Below, in pieces: positions 8,214-37,321 of a stretch of DNA of 64,000 nucleotides. The stretch is from sequence record MN022785.1; one strand, 5' to 3'. The translations under genes were made by a program, and so were the position numbers. This stretch comes from Escherichia phage VEc20. The notes under the pieces are model-generated. The model searched no databases. It worked only from the letters and a program-made list of their open reading frames with translations, and was not told the DNA's origin. Position 1 is the first letter of the stretch; every line of letters starts with the position of its first letter.

Positions 8214-8684
8214 TTAATCATGTTTCCACACCCCATCGGTATTTGACCAAAGCCGCTGATTATCTGATCCTCTCCACAGCTTTTTGGTCGGAAGATTTTT
8301 CTCATACTTCCCATCAATAATAACATCAACATATTTAAGCATTTCTAGTTGTTTAATATCTTCAAACTTATATCCTGTCCACAACCAAATGCTTTTATTT
8401 GGATAAAGATTTTTTACTGTTTGAACAATGCAATGAATAACATCTCGATTATCAGGATAGAGAGGGTCTCCTCCAGTTATAGTTAATCCTTCTATATAAT
8501 CATTATTCAAACATTCAATTAATTGTTCTAGTGTTTCACCAGTGAATGGAATACCATTTCTAGCATTCCATGTTGATTTATTATAACACCCTTCGCATTT
8601 ATGCAAACAACCTGTAACGAAAAGAACGACCCTGCAACCAGGGCCATTCACAAAATCGCAAGGATAAAATCTATCATAATTCAT
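8214..8684 (-). CDS. nrdG: Anaerobic ribonucleotide reductase activating protein (radical SAM)
   Basis: 156 aa; CxxxCxxC cluster (CLHKCEGC); ATGA overlap with nrdD. Confidence 0.9.
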   Translation of the reverse strand: MNYDRFYPCDFVNGPGCRVVLFVTGCLHKCEGCYNKSTWNARNGIPFTGETLEQLIECLNNDYIEGLTITGGDPLYPDNRDVIHCIVQTVKNLYPNKSIWLWTGYKFEDIKQLEMLKYVDVIIDGKYEKNLPTKKLWRGSDNQRLWSNTDGVWKHD

Positions 8685-10498
8685 TGATGCTTAACCCTAT
8701 GCATGATTTCTTTATTTTTGCCGAGATTAAATCCGCGTTCGTTCGGATTTCCCAAATAACCACACGTTCTTCTTATTGTATTCATCTTTTTAGGATCAGT
8801 TTCTCCACAAATAGAACAAACAAATCCGTTTTCAGTAGGAGTCATTTCATGGGTACTTCCGCATGTAAAACATTTATCCACTGGCATATTAACACCAAAA
8901 TAATCTAAATGTTGTGCAGCATAATCCCATACGGCCTCAAGACCTTTCAAGTTATTTTTCATATCAGGAAGTTCAACATAAGAAATGTGACCACCTGTCG
9001 CAATGAAATGATATGGCGCTTCACGAGAAATCTTTTCAAACGGAGTAATATTTTCTTCTACTGAGACATGGAAACTGTTAGTGTACCAGCCTTTATCGGT
9101 AACATCTTTTACGCTTCCATATTTTTCTGTATCGAGTTTACAGAAGCGATAACAAAGGTTTTCAGCAGGAGTCGAATATAAACTAAAAGCAAATCCGGTT
9201 CTTTCAGTCCACTGTTTAAGATGAGCATTCATTTTAGTTAAAATTTCTCGTCCAATATCACGACCGACAAGAATATTCAATTCGTGAATACCAATGTATC
9301 CTAAAGACACTGAACTTCTACCGTTTTTAAATAACTCAATTATATCGTCATCAGGTTTAAGACGAACCCCAAATGCACCTTCTTGGTAAAGAATAGGAGC
9401 AACAGTAGCTTTAACTCCTTTTAAGGAACTAATTCTACACATCAAAGCTTCAAAACATAAATCCATTCGTTCATTGAACAATTCAACAAATTTCTGTTCA
9501 TTGAACTGTGTTCCAATATAAGAATCTAACGCGATGCGAGGAAGATTCAGTGTTACAACACCAAGATTATTACGTCCATCAAGAATTTCATTACCAGTCG
9601 AATCTTTCCATACGCCCAAGAAACTACGGCAACCCATTGGAGAAACAGGAATAGATGAGCCGGTGATAGCTTTATTGTTCTTAGCTGAAATAATATCAGG
9701 ATACATCCTTTTGCTTGCACACTCTAAAGCAAGCTGCTTAATATCATAGTTCGGATCGTCTTTATAAAGATTAACGCCTTCTTCAACGAACATAACAAGC
9801 TTAGGGAAAATAGGAGTTATCCCATCACGACCGAGACCTTTAATACGATTTTTCAGAATTGCTTTCTGAATCATTCGTTCAGTCCAGTCAGTTCCCGTAC
9901 CAAATGTAATTGTTACAAAAGGAGTCTGTCCGTTTGAACTAAAGAGAGTATTTACTTCATATTCATAAGCTTGGAATGCATCGTATACATCTTTTTCTGT
10001 TTTAGATTGAGCATAATTCAACGCATCAGCGATTTGCCATTTTTCTGCATCCTCAATATGTTTTGCATAGGTGCGTTTAACATAAGGAGAAAGTACTTTA
10101 TCGACATTAGCAAATGTAGTTCCGCCATATTGGTGAGAAGCAACCTGTGCAGTAATTTGTGCCATAATTGCAGTAGCAACACCGATTGATTTAGGAGTTT
10201 CAATCTGTGCATTACCAAGCTTAAATCCGTTTTCAAGCATTCCTTTTAAATCTACTAAACAACAATTAGTAAATGGAAGAGCAGGGGAATAATCAATATC
10301 ATGGAAATGAATAATTCCGCTTTCATGCGCTTTCATAATAAAAGACGGGACCATATTTTTGGCAATGTGTTTAGACACAATACCAGCCATAAGGTCCCGT
10401 TGAGTTGGAAAAACACGAGAATCTTTATTAGCATTCTCGTTTAAAAGGTCTTTATTAGTTTTATGAATCAATCCTTCAATTTCTTTTTCAATTGTCAT
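8681..10498 (-). CDS. nrdD: Anaerobic ribonucleoside-triphosphate reductase (class III, glycyl radical); uninterrupted
   Basis: 605 aa; C-terminal glycyl-radical motif RRTCGYLG and Cys-rich zinc ribbon; single continuous ORF. Confidence 0.95.
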   Translation of the reverse strand: MTIEKEIEGLIHKTNKDLLNENANKDSRVFPTQRDLMAGIVSKHIAKNMVPSFIMKAHESGIIHFHDIDYSPALPFTNCCLVDLKGMLENGFKLGNAQIETPKSIGVATAIMAQITAQVASHQYGGTTFANVDKVLSPYVKRTYAKHIEDAEKWQIADALNYAQSKTEKDVYDAFQAYEYEVNTLFSSNGQTPFVTITFGTGTDWTERMIQKAILKNRIKGLGRDGITPIFPKLVMFVEEGVNLYKDDPNYDIKQLALECASKRMYPDIISAKNNKAITGSSIPVSPMGCRSFLGVWKDSTGNEILDGRNNLGVVTLNLPRIALDSYIGTQFNEQKFVELFNERMDLCFEALMCRISSLKGVKATVAPILYQEGAFGVRLKPDDDIIELFKNGRSSVSLGYIGIHELNILVGRDIGREILTKMNAHLKQWTERTGFAFSLYSTPAENLCYRFCKLDTEKYGSVKDVTDKGWYTNSFHVSVEENITPFEKISREAPYHFIATGGHISYVELPDMKNNLKGLEAVWDYAAQHLDYFGVNMPVDKCFTCGSTHEMTPTENGFVCSICGETDPKKMNTIRRTCGYLGNPNERGFNLGKNKEIMHRVKHQ

Positions 10499-16183: not shown

Positions 16184-17089
16184 TTAAGATTTAAGTAAAT
16201 CAACAATTTTAATTAACTTTTCACGCTCAGATTTAGCTTTACTACTCAATCCAGATAGTCTGAAAATTTCATCATCATATTGTTGAATAGAAATATTCAG
16301 CTCTTCAATCTGTTTATTAAAATAATCAATTTGTTCAGAATGTTTTTCGTTACTACGAACTGGTACAGGTTTTGTAGGCAATTTAGTTGAACTGGATTCA
16401 TCCGGGCGATAAATTAAAATACAATTTGAACCAATCGGGCATTTAGCACCAGACACATATTCTAGTGTTCCAGCTTCTTTTAAAACTTCAAAAGCTAAAC
16501 GGAGATGATGACCCATATTGACATAATCTGTAGAGTGAGCTCTGATATAATAATCATCTCCACGAGTACTAAATTTAAAGCATTTAAGGTCTTCTGTATT
16601 ATTAGTTTTAAAAATCATTTGTTTATCTAGACCTTTAGCTAATCGAGCACCTAATGCTAATAATCGTCGTTGATTTTCCCATAAATCCGCAATCATTTGA
16701 TCGAATGACAATTTCGGCATTAGTCGACCATAAAGGTCATATCCTTTATTATAATTGCGAAGAATTTCACTCGCGTTAATACGAGACAACGCTCCAATTT
16801 TATTAAGGGCTTTCATGATGCGATTAGATAAACTCATTCCAGACCCGTTTGTTCGCTGTAAATGTTTTTCTAATCCAAATCCAATATCAACTTTAAATTT
16901 ATCTAAAATTTTGGCATGAACATCTCTGTCAATAACATTCAAATCCAAAGTTGGGTTAAATCTATGAAAAAATTTATCTGGCTCTCCACGACGAAGTACA
17001 GTCCATTCATTCATCATTTTTTTATTAACTAAAGATTTAATTACTGCATTGACATTATTAATTACTACTGACATATTTTCCTCACTCAA
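16184..17089 (-). CDS. Hypothetical protein, tandem group member with coiled-coil C-terminus
   Basis: 301 aa; C-terminal EQIDYFNKQIEELNISIQQYDDEIFRL... Confidence 0.6.
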   Translation of the reverse strand: MSEENMSVVINNVNAVIKSLVNKKMMNEWTVLRRGEPDKFFHRFNPTLDLNVIDRDVHAKILDKFKVDIGFGLEKHLQRTNGSGMSLSNRIMKALNKIGALSRINASEILRNYNKGYDLYGRLMPKLSFDQMIADLWENQRRLLALGARLAKGLDKQMIFKTNNTEDLKCFKFSTRGDDYYIRAHSTDYVNMGHHLRLAFEVLKEAGTLEYVSGAKCPIGSNCILIYRPDESSSTKLPTKPVPVRSNEKHSEQIDYFNKQIEELNISIQQYDDEIFRLSGLSSKAKSEREKLIKIVDLLKS

Positions 17090-28474: not shown

Positions 28475-28795
28475 TTATTCTTTAAATCTAATCAATTTAT
28501 TCATAGACTTTGAAACTTCTGCACGAACCTCATGTAGATTTTTGAGCTGTTCAAGACGCTGCGTATAGTAAGCAATTTCATCTTCTTCGAGACAGTCCTG
28601 TGAATCTTCTTTAAGATACCGTGCATAGTCCTGGAAAGCGTTACGGACTACTTCCTGGAAGTCATCAAGACTTTGAATTTTCTTAGGAGCAGCAGACACA
28701 CGACGAGGGGCAGTATAATACTCATAACCAAACCCTGCGCTTAATTGAGCCATTAGTATTTTTCCTCTGGTTGGAACACAGCACGACAAGCCCAC
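28475..28795 (-). CDS. Hypothetical protein
   Basis: 106-aa ORF. Confidence 0.5.
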
Positions 28796-29055
28796 ATACT
28801 GGCTTCTTTGAGTTTCGTTTTAGCAATAGCTAACTGATCGAGGCTTTCAGCATAATTCTTCGCGAGTTCAAAGTCTTCGCAATCGTCCCACGCTTCCCAG
28901 AATTCATCATATAAAGCATCAAAGATAAGTCCTAAACGAACTTCAGCGTCTTTAATAGCATTTACTTTACCGATTTTTTCGTCGGTATGTGGTTTATAAC
29001 CCTTAATATCTTCAATCATATTTGACTTCCTCACCAGTGCATAAATCGTATTCAA
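28753..29055 (-). CDS. Hypothetical helical protein (vs.x region)
   Basis: 100-aa ORF; 5' end overlaps the upstream ORF, start uncertain. Confidence 0.45.
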
Positions 29056-29233
29056 CTAAACGAATAGGTTCATGAATGCCATATCCCTGAACAGAAATTT
29101 CTGTCGTAGGATAAATTCCATCAATATCACCCATATTCCAGGCTTCATTAAATTGCTGTTCGCCTGAATTACTAAACCACTCGGCGAAAGCATTTAGCAC
29201 ATCTTCAGAACCTTCAATAATTATCTTTGCCAT
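29012..29233 (-). CDS. Small hypothetical protein
   Basis: 73-aa ORF. Confidence 0.45.
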   Translation of the reverse strand: MAKIIIEGSEDVLNAFAEWFSNSGEQQFNEAWNMGDIDGIYPTTEISVQGYGIHEPIRLVEYDLCTGEEVKYD

Positions 29234-29595
29234 TACAAACTCTCGGTAAAGGTACGAGCGATAACGTCGCGCTGCTGTTCCGGAGTCAGAGAGTTAAAGC
29301 GAACTGCATAACCGGATACACGGATGGTCAGCTGCGGATATTTTTCCGGATGCTTAACTGCATCTTCCAGAGTTTCACGACGCAGAACGTTAACGTTCAG
29401 GTGTTGACCACCTTCAATTTTAACTGTAGGCTGTGGCTCAATTTCAATTTCACGGGCATGCAAACCATAGAAAATTTCTGGGTCTACAAAAGAGTCCTCT
29501 TTAAAGGTTTTAGAAACGATAATTCGTGCTTGAATACCATCTTCAAAATAAATAGTGCCTTTGTGTGTGCCTTCAAGAATTTGATATGCTTTCAT
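29233..29595 (-). CDS. grcA: Autonomous glycyl radical cofactor (GrcA/YfiD-like)
   Basis: 120 aa; C-terminal ~60 aa including the RVSGYAVRF glycyl-radical motif match recalled E. coli GrcA; this part uses GC-rich host-like codons. Confidence 0.85.
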
Positions 29596-29602
29596 ATAAA
29601 CC

Positions 29603-29932
29603 TCAATTAGAAAATAAATTTATCCAAGATTGTTCTTTAATTAAAAACGGCTCAGAATCATATGCCATTAAACTTTGCGTAATTAATCCTTTAAAAGGTC
29701 CATCAATAAATTCCATGGTAAAATACGGAATTTTATTCATTAATCTTGCATTAGGAGCAGTGCACAAAACTCTGCATCCTTTGAATACGCCTTTTTGTAA
29801 TTTGTATTGCTTGGGATAAAATTCGCTCAAAATGTTATTTTTTGCCAAAATTTCAAAATGATTCACCAATTTATTTTTAATAGTTTTTGGTGAAAAATAA
29901 AGATATTCGAAAAGCTGAGTGTCTGTCATCAT
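29603..29932 (-). CDS. Hypothetical protein
   Basis: ORF 29603..29983; start likely the internal MMTDTQ. Confidence 0.45.
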
Positions 29933-30468
29933 TGCATTCCGATTACGAAAAACTGTGGACGAGTAATACCACCAATGCAACATTTAATATTACAGCAGCA
30001 GTGTACAGTGTCAATATGGACACTATAAATCTTATCCATATCAGGAGATTTGACAGGCTCATCAATTATATACAAAATTCGCGAAAGCGATAAACCTCTG
30101 AACTTGCTTCCTTTATTACCAATAAAACTGCGCACAGAATCAGTAAATAAACGAAAACGTATATCATCATTAGAATAACGCGAAAATTCCTTTTTAATAT
30201 TATCTGCGGAAATTTTAGCGTAAGCTGAAGTATTAGAAAGAACAATAACTGTTCCACCGTCATACAACCAATTAGCGGCAAAATTAGTTACTGCAGTTGA
30301 TTTACCAGATTGACGCCCACCATCTAGTCGAAGTGTACAATACTGTTTAAGTAAGTCTTCAAATGGCGGGATATATTCGTTTTTACAAATTTCTTCTACT
30401 CTAGCATCAGAATGGTGTGTAAAAGCATTCATCAGGGATAGATAAGGACCAGTTAAAAATGTTCTCAT
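29929..30468 (-). CDS. Small P-loop protein
   Basis: ORF 29929..30516; Walker A GGRQSGKST and Walker B-like ILYIIDEP; start may be the internal MRTFLTG. Confidence 0.5.
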   Translation of the reverse strand: MRTFLTGPYLSLMNAFTHHSDARVEEICKNEYIPPFEDLLKQYCTLRLDGGRQSGKSTAVTNFAANWLYDGGTVIVLSNTSAYAKISADNIKKEFSRYSNDDIRFRLFTDSVRSFIGNKGSKFRGLSLSRILYIIDEPVKSPDMDKIYSVHIDTVHCCCNIKCCIGGITRPQFFVIGMQ

Positions 30469-30613
30469 TTTGTTCTCTCTAGGTTTGGGCCATTCCATGG
30501 CGCATGAATTGTCCATTTCTGTATTTACCCATTACCGCACTTGGGCTCGACCTTATTACAGGTTGGCGGGAATCCCTCACAGAATCATGAGGTCCAGGTT
30601 ATTCCCATGTTAT

Positions 30614-31030
30614 TTAAATGTAAATATTTTTGCCGTAATACTTATACCAGTGTGGCTTCATTAAAATTTTTTCATCGAGTCGTTGTTGACTCAACTTAAT
30701 AGCTGATTTGCATGGATTATAATCATTTTTCCATTCTACTGGAATATCGCTGATGTCAGGAACTTCAGTATCTTTTATACTGAACCCGCGTTTTAAGCAT
30801 TCCGTTATAATGTCCGATTGACGCTTTCGCAAAAATTCTAACTTATCGTAAAAGAAAGTAACATGACCAGAACCTAAAATAAATTTAGAAGATATTTTAA
30901 AATCTTTAACGCGCTTACCGTTTGCCACATGCTTACGAACTATACCAAAAACACGCGGCAATTCACGGTATTCTGCGATTAAATGTTGATCAGCAAGTTC
31001 AGATACTAAAGTCAAATTAATACGAGTCAT
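30614..31030 (-). CDS. denV: Endonuclease V (pyrimidine-dimer DNA glycosylase)
   Basis: 138 aa; [17 protein letters not shown]... close to recalled T4 endo V. Confidence 0.9.
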
Positions 31031-31046
31031 TTTATCCCTCCAAGTA

Positions 31047-31085
31047 ACTGTGAATATACTATCACAATTCTAGGAGAAAGTAAAC
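31047..31085 (-). promoter_or_regulatory. Early promoter-like element upstream of denV
   Basis: Minus strand GTTTAC, spacer, TAGTAT. Confidence 0.45.
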
Positions 31086-31089
31086 AACT

Positions 31090-31620
<531 letters not shown>

Positions 31621-36303: not shown

Positions 36304-36379
36304 TGGTCGAGGCAGTAGGGATCGAACCTACGACCTAGGACTTAGAAGGTCCTTGCTCTTCCTTCTGAGCTATGCCCCG
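36304..36379 (-). tRNA. tRNA-Arg (anticodon UCU), CCA encoded
   Basis: Hand-folded cloverleaf: 7-bp acceptor with one G-U, T-arm GTAGG/CCTAC, anticodon loop CUUCUAA. Confidence 0.8.
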
Positions 36380-36383
36380 TAAT

Positions 36384-36459
36384 TGGGGTGACCGATGGGA
36401 GTCGAACCCATGACTACGAGAATCACAATCTCGAGTTCTACCAACTGAACTACGGCCAC
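36384..36459 (-). tRNA. tRNA-His (anticodon GUG), discriminator C, CCA encoded
   Basis: Hand-folded: T-arm ATGGG/CCCAT, anticodon stem CGAGA/TCTCG, loop UUGUGAU; G-1 not encoded. Confidence 0.65.
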
Positions 36460-36573
36460 ATTAATACCTACTCCAACAATCAAGATGTCTTCACACGAAA
36501 TTAAGAGAAGAGTGATCAGTTCAACCCCTATAATCGCGTCAAGTAGATATTAATGTGACAGTTGTCACAAATT

Positions 36574-36649
36574 TGGCGGACGTGATAGGATTCGAACCTA
36601 TAACCAATCGCTTAACAGGCGATCGCTCTGCCATTGAGCTACACATCCA
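36574..36649 (-). tRNA. tRNA-Asn (anticodon GUU)
   Basis: Hand-folded: T-arm ATAGG/CCTAT, anticodon stem ATCGC/GCGAT, loop CUGUUAA. Confidence 0.7.
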
Positions 36650-36652
36650 AAT

Positions 36653-36739
36653 TGGTGGGGAGTGGTGGAGTCGAACCACCCGAGTCGCAATGACAATGAA
36701 TTTACAGTCCACACCGCTACATCTACGGGATAACTCCCC
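36653..36739 (-). tRNA. Type II (long variable arm) tRNA, probably tRNA-Tyr (GUA)
   Basis: Perfect 7-bp acceptor, T-arm GGTGG/CCACC, 87 nt; anticodon loop CUGUAAA; D-arm and anticodon stem irregular. Confidence 0.55.
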
Positions 36740-36748
36740 AAATTAATT

Positions 36749-36823
36749 TGGTGGCCCTGGGTGGAATTGAACCACCATCTGGCGATTATGAGTCGCTTGC
36801 TTGAACCTTCCAGCTACAGGGCC
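36749..36823 (-). tRNA. tRNA with CAU anticodon (Met, or Ile if lysidine-modified as in T4)
   Basis: Perfect acceptor stem, T-loop TTCAATT, anticodon loop CUCAUAA. Confidence 0.75.
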
Positions 36824-36824
36824 T

Positions 36825-36900
36825 TGGTGCTGATTGACGGAATCGAACCGCCGACCTTCTCATTACAAGTGAGTTGCTCTACCTACTGAGCTAAATCAGC
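36825..36900 (-). tRNA. tRNA-Thr (anticodon UGU)
   Basis: Perfect acceptor, anticodon loop CUUGUAA. Confidence 0.8.
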
Positions 36901-36905
36901 AAAAC

Positions 36906-36995
36906 TGGCGGAGGCGATAGGATTTGAACCTATGAGTCGCCGGAGCGACTGCCGGTTTTCAAGACCGGTGCATTAAACCACTCTGCCACGCCTCC
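36906..36995 (-). tRNA. tRNA-Ser (anticodon UGA), type II
   Basis: 90 nt, variable-arm hairpin, anticodon loop CUUGAAA. Confidence 0.8.
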
Positions 36996-36997
36996 AG

Positions 36998-37071
36998 TCT
37001 CCGTGGCAGGATTTGAACCTACGACATTCTGCTCCCAAAGCAGACGCTCTACCAAACTGAGCTACACGGAG
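36998..37071 (-). tRNA. tRNA-Pro (anticodon UGG), CCA not encoded
   Basis: Anticodon loop UUUGGGA; 3' end 2 nt from the tRNA-Ser 5' end (Pro-Ser dimeric precursor as in T4). Confidence 0.8.
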
Positions 37072-37081
37072 TAAATTAAAT

Positions 37082-37155
<74 letters not shown>

Positions 37156-37160
37156 AAATT

Positions 37161-37247
37161 TGGTGCGAGAAGTGGGACTCGAACCCACAAGGAAATCATT
37201 CCGCAGCATTTTAAGTGCTGTGCCTTTACCAATTTGACCATTCTCGC
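37161..37247 (-). tRNA. tRNA-Leu (anticodon UAA), type II
   Basis: 87 nt, perfect acceptor, anticodon stem CAGCA/TGCTG, loop CUUAAAA. Confidence 0.8.
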
Positions 37248-37248
37248 G

Positions 37249-37321
37249 CTGGGAATAAAGGACTCGAACCTTTGCATCTAGCAGTCAAAGTGCTATGCCT
37301 TACCAACTTGGCTAATTCCCA
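37249..37321 (-). tRNA. tRNA-Gln (anticodon UUG), CCA not encoded
   Basis: Anticodon loop CUUUGAC; 3' end abuts the tRNA-Leu 5' end (Gln-Leu dimeric precursor as in T4). Confidence 0.8.

Follow-up and report, generated by a model that had tools for sequence, protein, structure and literature searches.

A GrcA-type spare-part protein of a T4-like Escherichia phage with an apparently host-derived glycyl radical domain

Only two spare-part proteins for glycyl radical enzymes have been validated, YfiD (GrcA) from Escherichia coli and the Y06I protein of phage T4 (PMC8683613). As summarized in that source from Wagner et al. (2001, BBRC 285:456), the activase of pyruvate formate-lyase (PFL), PFL-AE, installs a glycyl radical on YfiD or Y06I, and the activated protein then forms a complex with oxygen-cleaved PFL, whose activity is thereby restored (PMC8683613). 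Residues 1–60 of GrcA/YfiD are disordered in solution, yet they help the protein to bind cleaved PFL and to become activated efficiently, while residues 61–127 constitute a structured, PFL-like domain which copies residues 693–759 of PflB (PMC8683613). Y06I is presumably the product of the T4 gene vs.6, since vs.6 is annotated as GrcA in the T4 region examined and carries the Swiss-Prot entry GRCA_BPT4. Here, the vs.6 gene of Escherichia phage VEc20 is analyzed within a stretch of 64,000 nucleotides (sequence record MN022785.1), referred to as the window. It very probably encodes a PFL spare part of the GrcA/YfiD type and represents an old phage copy of grcA whose core has been overwritten by host grcA, a replacement that took place at least twice among the phages compared. 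The gene and its parts are as follows.

29233–29595, minus strand: vs.6 coding sequence of 120 amino acids and a stop codon, from the list of open reading frames (ORFs), with ATG start and TAA stop; orthologue of T4 vs.6 / Y06I / GRCA_BPT4.
29418–29595, minus strand: 5′ part, of phage lineage, gene nucleotides (nt) 1–178, residues 1 to about 59; AT-rich phage codon usage and no DNA similarity to E. coli grcA.
29246–29417, minus strand: host-derived patch, gene nt 179–350, identical in pairwise alignment to nt 200–371 of E. coli grcA (172/172); encodes the structured glycyl radical domain.
29302–29322, minus strand: glycyl radical loop RVSGYAV, residues 92–98, with the Gly95 codon GGT at 29311–29313; placed by translation and motif position.
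29233–29245, minus strand: 3′ tail of phage type by alignment, ACC GAG AGT TTG TAA as opposed to ACT GAA AGC CTG TAA in the host.

Neither the gene nor its family or biochemical function is new, and in this respect the present finding is a rediscovery. The protein has the size and domain content of the GrcA family: Pfam Gly_radical (PF01228) covers residues 61–101 (E = 2.8e-18), and the NCBIfam model TIGR04365 (GrcA) aligns residues 20–120 with its positions 25–126 (153.3 bits, E = 3.7e-45). The best match among solved structures is E. coli GrcA (PDB 6OWR; phmmer, 8.6e-42), residues 22–120 of vs.6 lying on GrcA 28–127. Gly95, in a loop of PFL type, aligns with Gly102 of GrcA and Gly734 of PflB. 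The T4 protein NP_049730.1 corresponds to the Swiss-Prot-reviewed UniProt entry P13316 (GRCA_BPT4, formerly Y06I, “Autonomous glycyl radical cofactor”) and falls into one 90% cluster with the window protein, to which it is 99% identical. At the DNA level, vs.6 is 98–100% identical to Tequatrovirus records, including Shigella phage SfPhi01 (100%) and T4 (98.1%). A match to vs.6 was obtained in 756 phage records by megablast and in about 1,515 by blastn.

The T4 gene is the closest counterpart, sharing the length of 120 amino acids, the neighbors vs.7 and vs.5, the overlap TAATG and a core which is 170/171 identical to that of E. coli, comparable to the host-identical core found here. It differs in an E. 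coli-like tract that extends about 8 nt further 3′ (ACT GAA AG...) and in residue 75, which is His in T4 and Arg in the window copy. In the T4 reference (L003, 6558–6920) this codon is CAT, while Arg is encoded by CGT, CGC or CGG in the window copy, in 14 other copies with a host-identical core and in E. coli grcA. No other amino acid replacement occurs among the E. coli-type cores compared, and His75 may have arisen by mutation in a laboratory strain, in the same protein on which the biochemistry was done.

E. coli GrcA (YfiD, P68066, 6OWR) shares the small stand-alone format, and residues 61–120 of vs.6 correspond to most of its structured domain (61–127). By comparison, vs.6 is 7 residues shorter, its N-terminal ~58 residues are ~37% identical over the alignable 38 amino acids, and it is located in an AT-rich phage operon, whereas E. 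coli grcA lies between ung and eamB/srmB. The C-terminal domain of PflB (PDB 1H16 and others) shares the glycyl loop and the fold element that is replaced, with residues 58–120 of vs.6 aligning on PflB 697–759 (E = 5e-26). Unlike PflB, vs.6 is a stand-alone 14-kDa protein whose C-terminal sequence is of GrcA type and not of PflB type (…TKEQQQDVITRTFTQSM).

Host–phage intragenic recombination in auxiliary metabolic genes has reportedly been described for psbA and psbD of cyanophages. These are likewise said to be phage-borne host metabolic genes with mosaic patches exchanged with host alleles. Unlike them, vs.6 displays one domain-sized tract (~170 nt) with homology-limited, fixed ends and a species-specific match, and its carrier is an enterobacterial phage of the T-even group, with DNA that otherwise differs greatly from that of the host.

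The grcA-identical patch within vs.6

Residues 61–120 of vs.6, including the motif RVSGYAVRF, are identical to residues 68–127 of E. coli GrcA at all 60 positions. Within the shared part, the sole differences from E. coli grcA are four synonymous changes, located in the last four sense codons (the last 13 nt), and the homology ends at the stop codon. The patch was matched in every complete E. coli genome (5,426/5,426), at 97–98% identity over 185 nt, and the closest grcA outside Escherichia is identical at 158/172 positions. No other segment of the entire window resembles E. coli chromosomes at the level of megablast.

The base composition changes accordingly along the gene. The content of guanine and cytosine (GC) rises from 0.35 in the 5′ part to 0.49 in the 3′ part, and GC at third codon positions (GC3) rises from 0.24 to 0.44, as opposed to a GC3 of 0.42 in both halves of E. 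coli grcA. A local GC profile peaks at 0.48–0.51 between 29240 and 29400, compared with 0.28–0.35 nearby. Furthermore, the 3′ half uses the codons CGT (four times), CGC (twice), CTG (five times) and CCG (three times), while CGA, CTT, TTG, CCA and CCT are found in the 5′ half.

The original prediction, made from the DNA sequence alone, had described the ORF as a GrcA-like glycyl radical cofactor, a reading which is borne out by Pfam, by TIGR04365 and by the orthology to P13316. Its statement that the C-terminal half with RVSGYAVRF matches E. coli GrcA residue for residue holds for all 60 aligned residues, and the GC-rich 3′ half with cgt, ctg and ccg codons was recovered in the GC3 values, these codons being confined to that half. 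Alignment thus returned a strong grcA match and codon usage proved non-uniform; neither a weak similarity to GrcA nor a uniform phage-like codon usage was seen. Two further claims require modification. The N-terminal ~55 amino acids, described as different, indeed show no DNA similarity to grcA, but their protein sequence is homologous (37% over 38 amino acids, E = 2e-5). Likewise, the proposed recent capture of host DNA is correct with regard to a recent host origin (172/172), but the host sequence forms a replacement inside a grcA homologue that the phage already possessed.

The homology of the N-terminal half is weak but significant. A BLASTP comparison of the N-terminal 58 amino acids of vs.6 with GrcA 1–65 yields 14/38 identities (37%, E = 2e-5) over GrcA 28–65, and phmmer extends the alignment N-terminally to residue 22 of vs.6. 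Among phages, the 5′ part is identical at 155–159/180 positions to that of Mosigvirus and at 131–136/180 to that of Jiaodavirus, as is usual for diverged orthologues of phages. By these comparisons, the N-terminal half appears to be a diverged GrcA N-terminus and not an unrelated sequence, and vs.6 as a whole would be a full-length grcA homologue of which the disordered half has drifted while the structured half is host-identical. The boundary between the disordered and the structured part of GrcA agrees with that between the diverged and the conserved half of vs.6 (PMC8683613).

At the other end of the gene, the 3′ tail is phage-lineage sequence as well. In all phage genera the last four codons are of phage type, reading GAGAGTCTATAA, GAGAGTTTGTAA or GAGGCACTATAA, as opposed to GAAAGCCTGTAA in the grcA genes of the hosts. 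The host DNA is consequently an internal patch that lies between two stretches of phage lineage. An internal replacement is indicated by the phage-type last ~13 nt and by the homology of the N-terminus to GrcA, as opposed to newly captured host DNA joined to an unrelated N-terminus. Such a flanked patch is the pattern expected of homologous recombination or gene conversion into an existing homologue, the tract ending where homology ends. In the proposed sequence of events, the ancestral state would have been an old, diverged phage copy of full-length grcA. Gene nt 179–350 were overwritten from the grcA on the chromosome of the host species, by gene conversion or homologous recombination, and neither the 5′ half of phage type nor the final ~13 nt were affected. 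The four synonymous changes in the tail were also considered as a Shine-Dalgarno sequence (GAGAG) for the downstream gene vs.5, an explanation which is weakened by the host-like GAA that T4 keeps at this place.

An abrupt change in composition combined with perfect host identity could also arise during assembly or through contamination, if host reads had been chimerized into a phage contig. However, the in-frame junctions recur in more than 740 independent phage records, among them the references of T4, RB32 and RB14, which excludes an artefact of this kind. The exact window protein is furthermore found on at least 187 contigs, and, according to the account in PMC8683613, expression and assays of the T4 protein have been carried out. 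The probability of an artefact is therefore regarded as negligible.

Patch alleles in phages and their hosts

The comparison was extended to 92 phage or viral copies and 83 host grcA genes over a core of 57 codons (EGGQH…RTFT; 171 nt). The K. pneumoniae grcA sequence was taken from a PLSDB “plasmid” entry that is a chromosome. Three tiers of phage copies can be distinguished.

Tier A, Tequatrovirus, Mosigvirus and close relatives: core 168–171/171 identical to E. coli grcA; next genus 158/172 over the 172-nt patch.
Tier B, Klebsiella Jiaodavirus: core 162–166/171 identical to K. pneumoniae grcA and 145–150/171 to E. coli grcA.
Tier C, RB43 and leE (Pseudotevenvirus), Matisse (Slopekvirus), PG7, CC31-like (Karamvirus), JSE (Krischvirus), T5-like and jumbo phages: 72–85% identity to any host, with phage-like GC3.

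In the second tier, nt 202–369 of K. pneumoniae grcA are 97–98.2% identical to more than 100 Klebsiella phages, and their patch has its 5′ breakpoint in common with that of the E. coli phages. The two host species differ at 21 sites of the core. The E. coli state is found at 19–21 of these in the E. coli phages (20 in the window copy) and the Klebsiella state at 17–19 in the Jiaodavirus copies, where the exceptions are clustered at the 3′ end of the core. The patch also stands out between phage genera. Identity between the window and Mosigvirus is 0.65–0.87 in the flanking genes and the 5′ part, 0.97–1.00 over gene nt 171–350 and 0.77 beyond nt 350, and third-position differences number 14–16/60 upstream as opposed to 2/57 in the core (Fisher p = 0.0006–0.002).

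At least two independent host-to-phage replacements are thus well supported by the comparison of alleles, one with the E. coli allele (Tequatrovirus/Mosigvirus) and one with the K. pneumoniae allele (Jiaodavirus). Phage and host differ at 0–9 sites, far fewer than the 21 between the hosts, and both transfers therefore postdate the split of E. coli and Klebsiella and are independent. The direction from host to phage is indicated by the host genes, since their 5′ parts (169/201 identical between E. coli and K. pneumoniae) and cores (150/171) have diverged to a similar extent and both are of host composition. The donor was grcA and not pflB, since E. coli pflB reaches a DNA identity of no more than about 80–83%.

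As the encoded domain is extremely conserved as a protein in all phages and hosts, a single ancient capture might be invoked, with near-identity held ever since by purifying selection that extends to codons or mRNA, without repeated exchange. The other phage genera argue against such a scenario: RB43, Matisse, PG7, JSE and the T5-like phages encode nearly the same domain with only 72–85% nucleotide identity, and because their codons have diverged freely, there is no constraint at the codon level. Moreover, the phage cores carry the species-specific synonymous states of either E. coli or K. pneumoniae, which contradicts a single capture, and phage–host distances are much below the distance between the hosts. 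This scenario is considered extremely improbable.

Several matches that could have suggested additional donors were discarded. Salmonella grcA was rejected as a donor, as no phage copy exceeds 83.8% identity to it. A third, Yersinia-type patch (L124, 156/171 to Yersinia grcA) has a full host-type N-terminus and represents a chromosomal grcA on an IMG/VR contig, and the viral contigs L164–L174 with a high GC3 (0.5–0.6) contain 3′ ends of pflB (…TFTQSM) and not phage grcA. All of these IMG/VR contigs are probably prophage host flanks or misclassified. A search for protein homologues with the Jiaodavirus protein did not single out K. pneumoniae GrcA.

Some of the records compared carry questionable labels. 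The PLSDB “plasmid” CP125156.1 (L094; listed with L095, LR134122.1) measures 5.37 Mb and contains a chromosomal grcA, which identifies it as a K. pneumoniae chromosome, and several multi-Mb E. coli “plasmids” among the same matches look likewise chromosomal. Two phages are concerned under the records PP355766.1 and PV654520.1. Klebsiella phage vB_Kpn_AM_K4 (288,685 bp) shows two NrdD places along with a Jiaodavirus-type grcA, a pattern suggesting a concatenated or duplicated assembly. The vs.6 of “Pseudomonas phage vB_PSGBLB0006” is 100% identical to the E. coli-type copy of the window, and its host label is doubtful for this reason.

Beyond the two replacements, the phage core may be kept in register with the grcA of the current host by recurrent, homology-limited gene conversion from host to phage, i.e., by concerted evolution, a proposal whose chances we regard as evenly balanced. 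Evidence for ongoing exchange is suggestive, not conclusive. First, the E. coli-like tract does not end uniformly on its 3′ side in different isolates, the sequence being ACT GAA AGT in T4, ACC GAG AGT in the window, GAG AGC in L099 and AGT CTG in L098. Second, two common polymorphisms which segregate in E. coli grcA, A>G at core nt 12 (an O157 strain) and T>C at core nt 39 (an O25:H16 strain), occur in phage copies, both of them in L096 and 39C in ATK47.

Neither observation decides against another course of events, in which the allele of each host species was captured once and then spread among co-infecting T-even phages by phage–phage recombination, without repeated conversion. T-even phages recombine freely, and Tequatrovirus and Mosigvirus share a common 5′ breakpoint and similar tails, so that the spread of one captured allele could explain the E. 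coli-type core of both genera. This alternative is held to be a serious possibility, if a somewhat doubtful one. Other points also weigh against recurrent conversion. The patch follows the phage genus and not the isolation host, as Nispero (K. aerogenes), PSE-D1 (Salmonella) and Yersinia-infecting Tequatroviruses all keep the genus-type patch. The two shared polymorphisms are third-position transitions which could have recurred by chance and hence constitute weak evidence, and both were found together in none of the E. coli genomes. Finally, Salmonella grcA has no near-identical phage counterpart (best phage copy ≤83.8%), which speaks against universal host tracking. Because the patch tracks the genus and Salmonella grcA is without a phage counterpart, the replacement is occasional and not obligatory.

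If exchange is recurrent, vs.6 would offer a clean case, accessible to experiment, in which a virulent phage renews one of its genes from the template of its host, and the patch would be a natural marker of the recent host history of T-even phages. A host-derived, species-specific patch in vs.6 was not found described in the literature searched, although an earlier mention in the 2001 paper or in the T4 genome review is quite possible. The host-tracking pattern is thus a modest and possibly unreported addition to a known gene.

Target enzyme and proposed function

The spare-part function put forward in the original prediction has been known for the T4 protein since 2001, following the account in PMC8683613. 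As its beneficiary, either the anaerobic ribonucleotide reductase NrdD or the host PFL had been suggested, together with the presence of NrdD and NrdG in the phage. The two genes were located.

8214–10498, minus strand: nrdG (8214–8684) and nrdD (8681–10498), given as context; Pfam NRDD 6.4e-171, Gly_radical 1.2e-25 and Fer4_12 2.3e-48.

The PFL part of the suggestion agrees with the published activity of the T4 protein, while the NrdD part is opposed by differing loops and by the lack of detectable similarity. A spare part for the phage NrdD, activated by the phage NrdG, has some initial appeal, given that both genes lie in the same genome about 19 kb from vs.6, that NrdD is likewise a glycyl radical enzyme which is cleaved by oxygen, and that spare parts for other glycyl radical enzymes have been speculated to exist (PMC8683613). 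However, the C-terminal domain of vs.6 is 100% identical to GrcA and about 80% to PflB, whereas BLASTP detects no similarity between vs.6 and the NrdD of the window (E = 2.7). A class III spare part, a hypothetical group with no known member, would be expected to match NrdD and to have a loop RxCGYLG. The loops are also unlike, RVSGYAV in vs.6 as opposed to RRTCGYLG with Gly580 in NrdD. In fact, PFL-AE radicalizes an RVSGYAV peptide but not RVCGYLG, which indicates that the activases are loop-specific (review, PMC13450708). Tracking of the host grcA allele, moreover, is sensible only with a host protein as the partner. An NrdD spare part is accordingly judged very unlikely. On the basis of the PFL-type loop, the lack of similarity to NrdD and the loop discrimination by PFL-AE (PMC13450708), host PflB and PflA are the predicted partners of vs.6, rather than phage NrdD and NrdG.

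In the proposed mechanism, oxygen would cleave PflB at the Gly734 radical in a microaerobic host. Phage vs.6 would then bind the cleaved PflB and supply a replacement glycyl radical domain, and the host activase PflA (PFL-AE) would place the radical on Gly95 of vs.6, bringing PFL activity back. These steps have been published for the T4 protein, which is 99% identical. The phage may benefit in that the infected cell goes on making acetyl-CoA/ATP and formate, the latter being a possible link to class III ribonucleotide reductases such as the phage NrdD, for which it would serve as the reductant. In E. coli, the class III reductase reportedly takes its hydrogen from formate. Any connection to NrdD would be indirect, with nrdG/nrdD as a possible beneficiary of formate made by PFL. 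T5-like phages, which are unrelated to the T-evens, also contain both a grcA-like gene and nrdD.

The only near-host-identical stretch in 64 kb of a T-even genome would accordingly encode the domain which docks into a host enzyme and is recognized by a host activase, and related phages of another host species carry the allele of that species at the same place. Together with NrdD/NrdG, the repair of PFL lends support to the idea of an investment by T-even phages in gut metabolism under anaerobic or microaerobic conditions.

Some findings count against the assignment of vs.6 as a PFL spare part or against its rationale. The TIGR04365 score of 153.3 bits does not reach the equivalog cut-off of 170 bits, a shortfall attributed to the divergence of the N-terminal half; despite the sub-cut-off score of the window protein, the T4 orthologue bears the name GrcA in RefSeq and UniProt. 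The available biochemistry concerns the T4 protein, which is one residue off (H75 in T4, R75 here), and no in vivo phage phenotype of vs.6 was found in the literature searched. The formate rationale is affected by the loose co-occurrence of the genes, as 2,913 phage records contain NrdD as opposed to ~1,515 with a grcA-like gene. Many NrdD phages are thus without grcA, and the association between the two is weak.

Gene neighborhood

The genes and signals next to vs.6 are listed below.

29603–29983, minus strand: vs.7, upstream gene, separated from vs.6 by a gap of 7 nt; from the ORF list and the RB32 and T4 annotation.
29601–29604, minus strand: GAGG, Shine-Dalgarno-like, 6 nt 5′ of the vs.6 ATG and overlapping the TGA stop codon of vs.7; read from the sequence.
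29012–29233, minus strand: vs.5, downstream gene of 73 amino acids; from the ORF list and the RB32 annotation.

The stop codon of vs.6 and the ATG of vs.5 overlap as TAATG, and because of this overlap the two genes are assigned to one transcription/translation unit. A scan of 27.9–31.7 kb for promoters and terminators gave no excess of sites over shuffled sequence. The gene order in the window, e – denV – vs.8 – vs.7 – vs.6 – vs.5 – vs.4 – vs.3, agrees with that of RB32 and T4, with e, denV, vs.8 and vs.7 upstream of vs.6 and regB downstream, beyond vs.3. The gene is therefore found in the regB–denV early region, between vs.7 and vs.5/vs.4, with high identity to T4. As the flanking ORFs constitute a T4-type set, the window is part of a Tequatrovirus (T4-like) genome.

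Between positions 17000 and 41999, the only matches in the E. coli collection besides the grcA patch correspond to 219 plasmid records, all at 80–90% identity, and the one match listed among them is an annotated tRNA-Tyr (87%). Eleven tRNA genes (Arg, His, Asn, Tyr, Met, Thr, Ser, Pro, Gly, Leu and Gln) are located at 36304–37321 on the minus strand.

Upstream of vs.6, the longest ORFs of vs.8 (29929–30516) and vs.7 (29603–29983), both on the minus strand, overlap by 55 nt. The true start of vs.7 is probably an internal ATG, since the ORF comprises 126 amino acids here as opposed to 110 in T4. Further upstream, denV (30614–31030) directly adjoins the lysozyme gene e (31090–31584), both on the minus strand (30614–31584). 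In T4, ipII and ipIII lie between denV and e, whereas this phage has no internal-protein genes there; RB32 contains Ip4 between vs.8 and e and lacks denV. Two genes downstream of vs.6, the ORF at the vs.4 position (28753–29055, minus strand, 100 amino acids) matches Pfam PF24729 at 2e-20, the Acb2/Tad1 hairpin domain of the anti-CBASS/anti-Thoeris sponge family.

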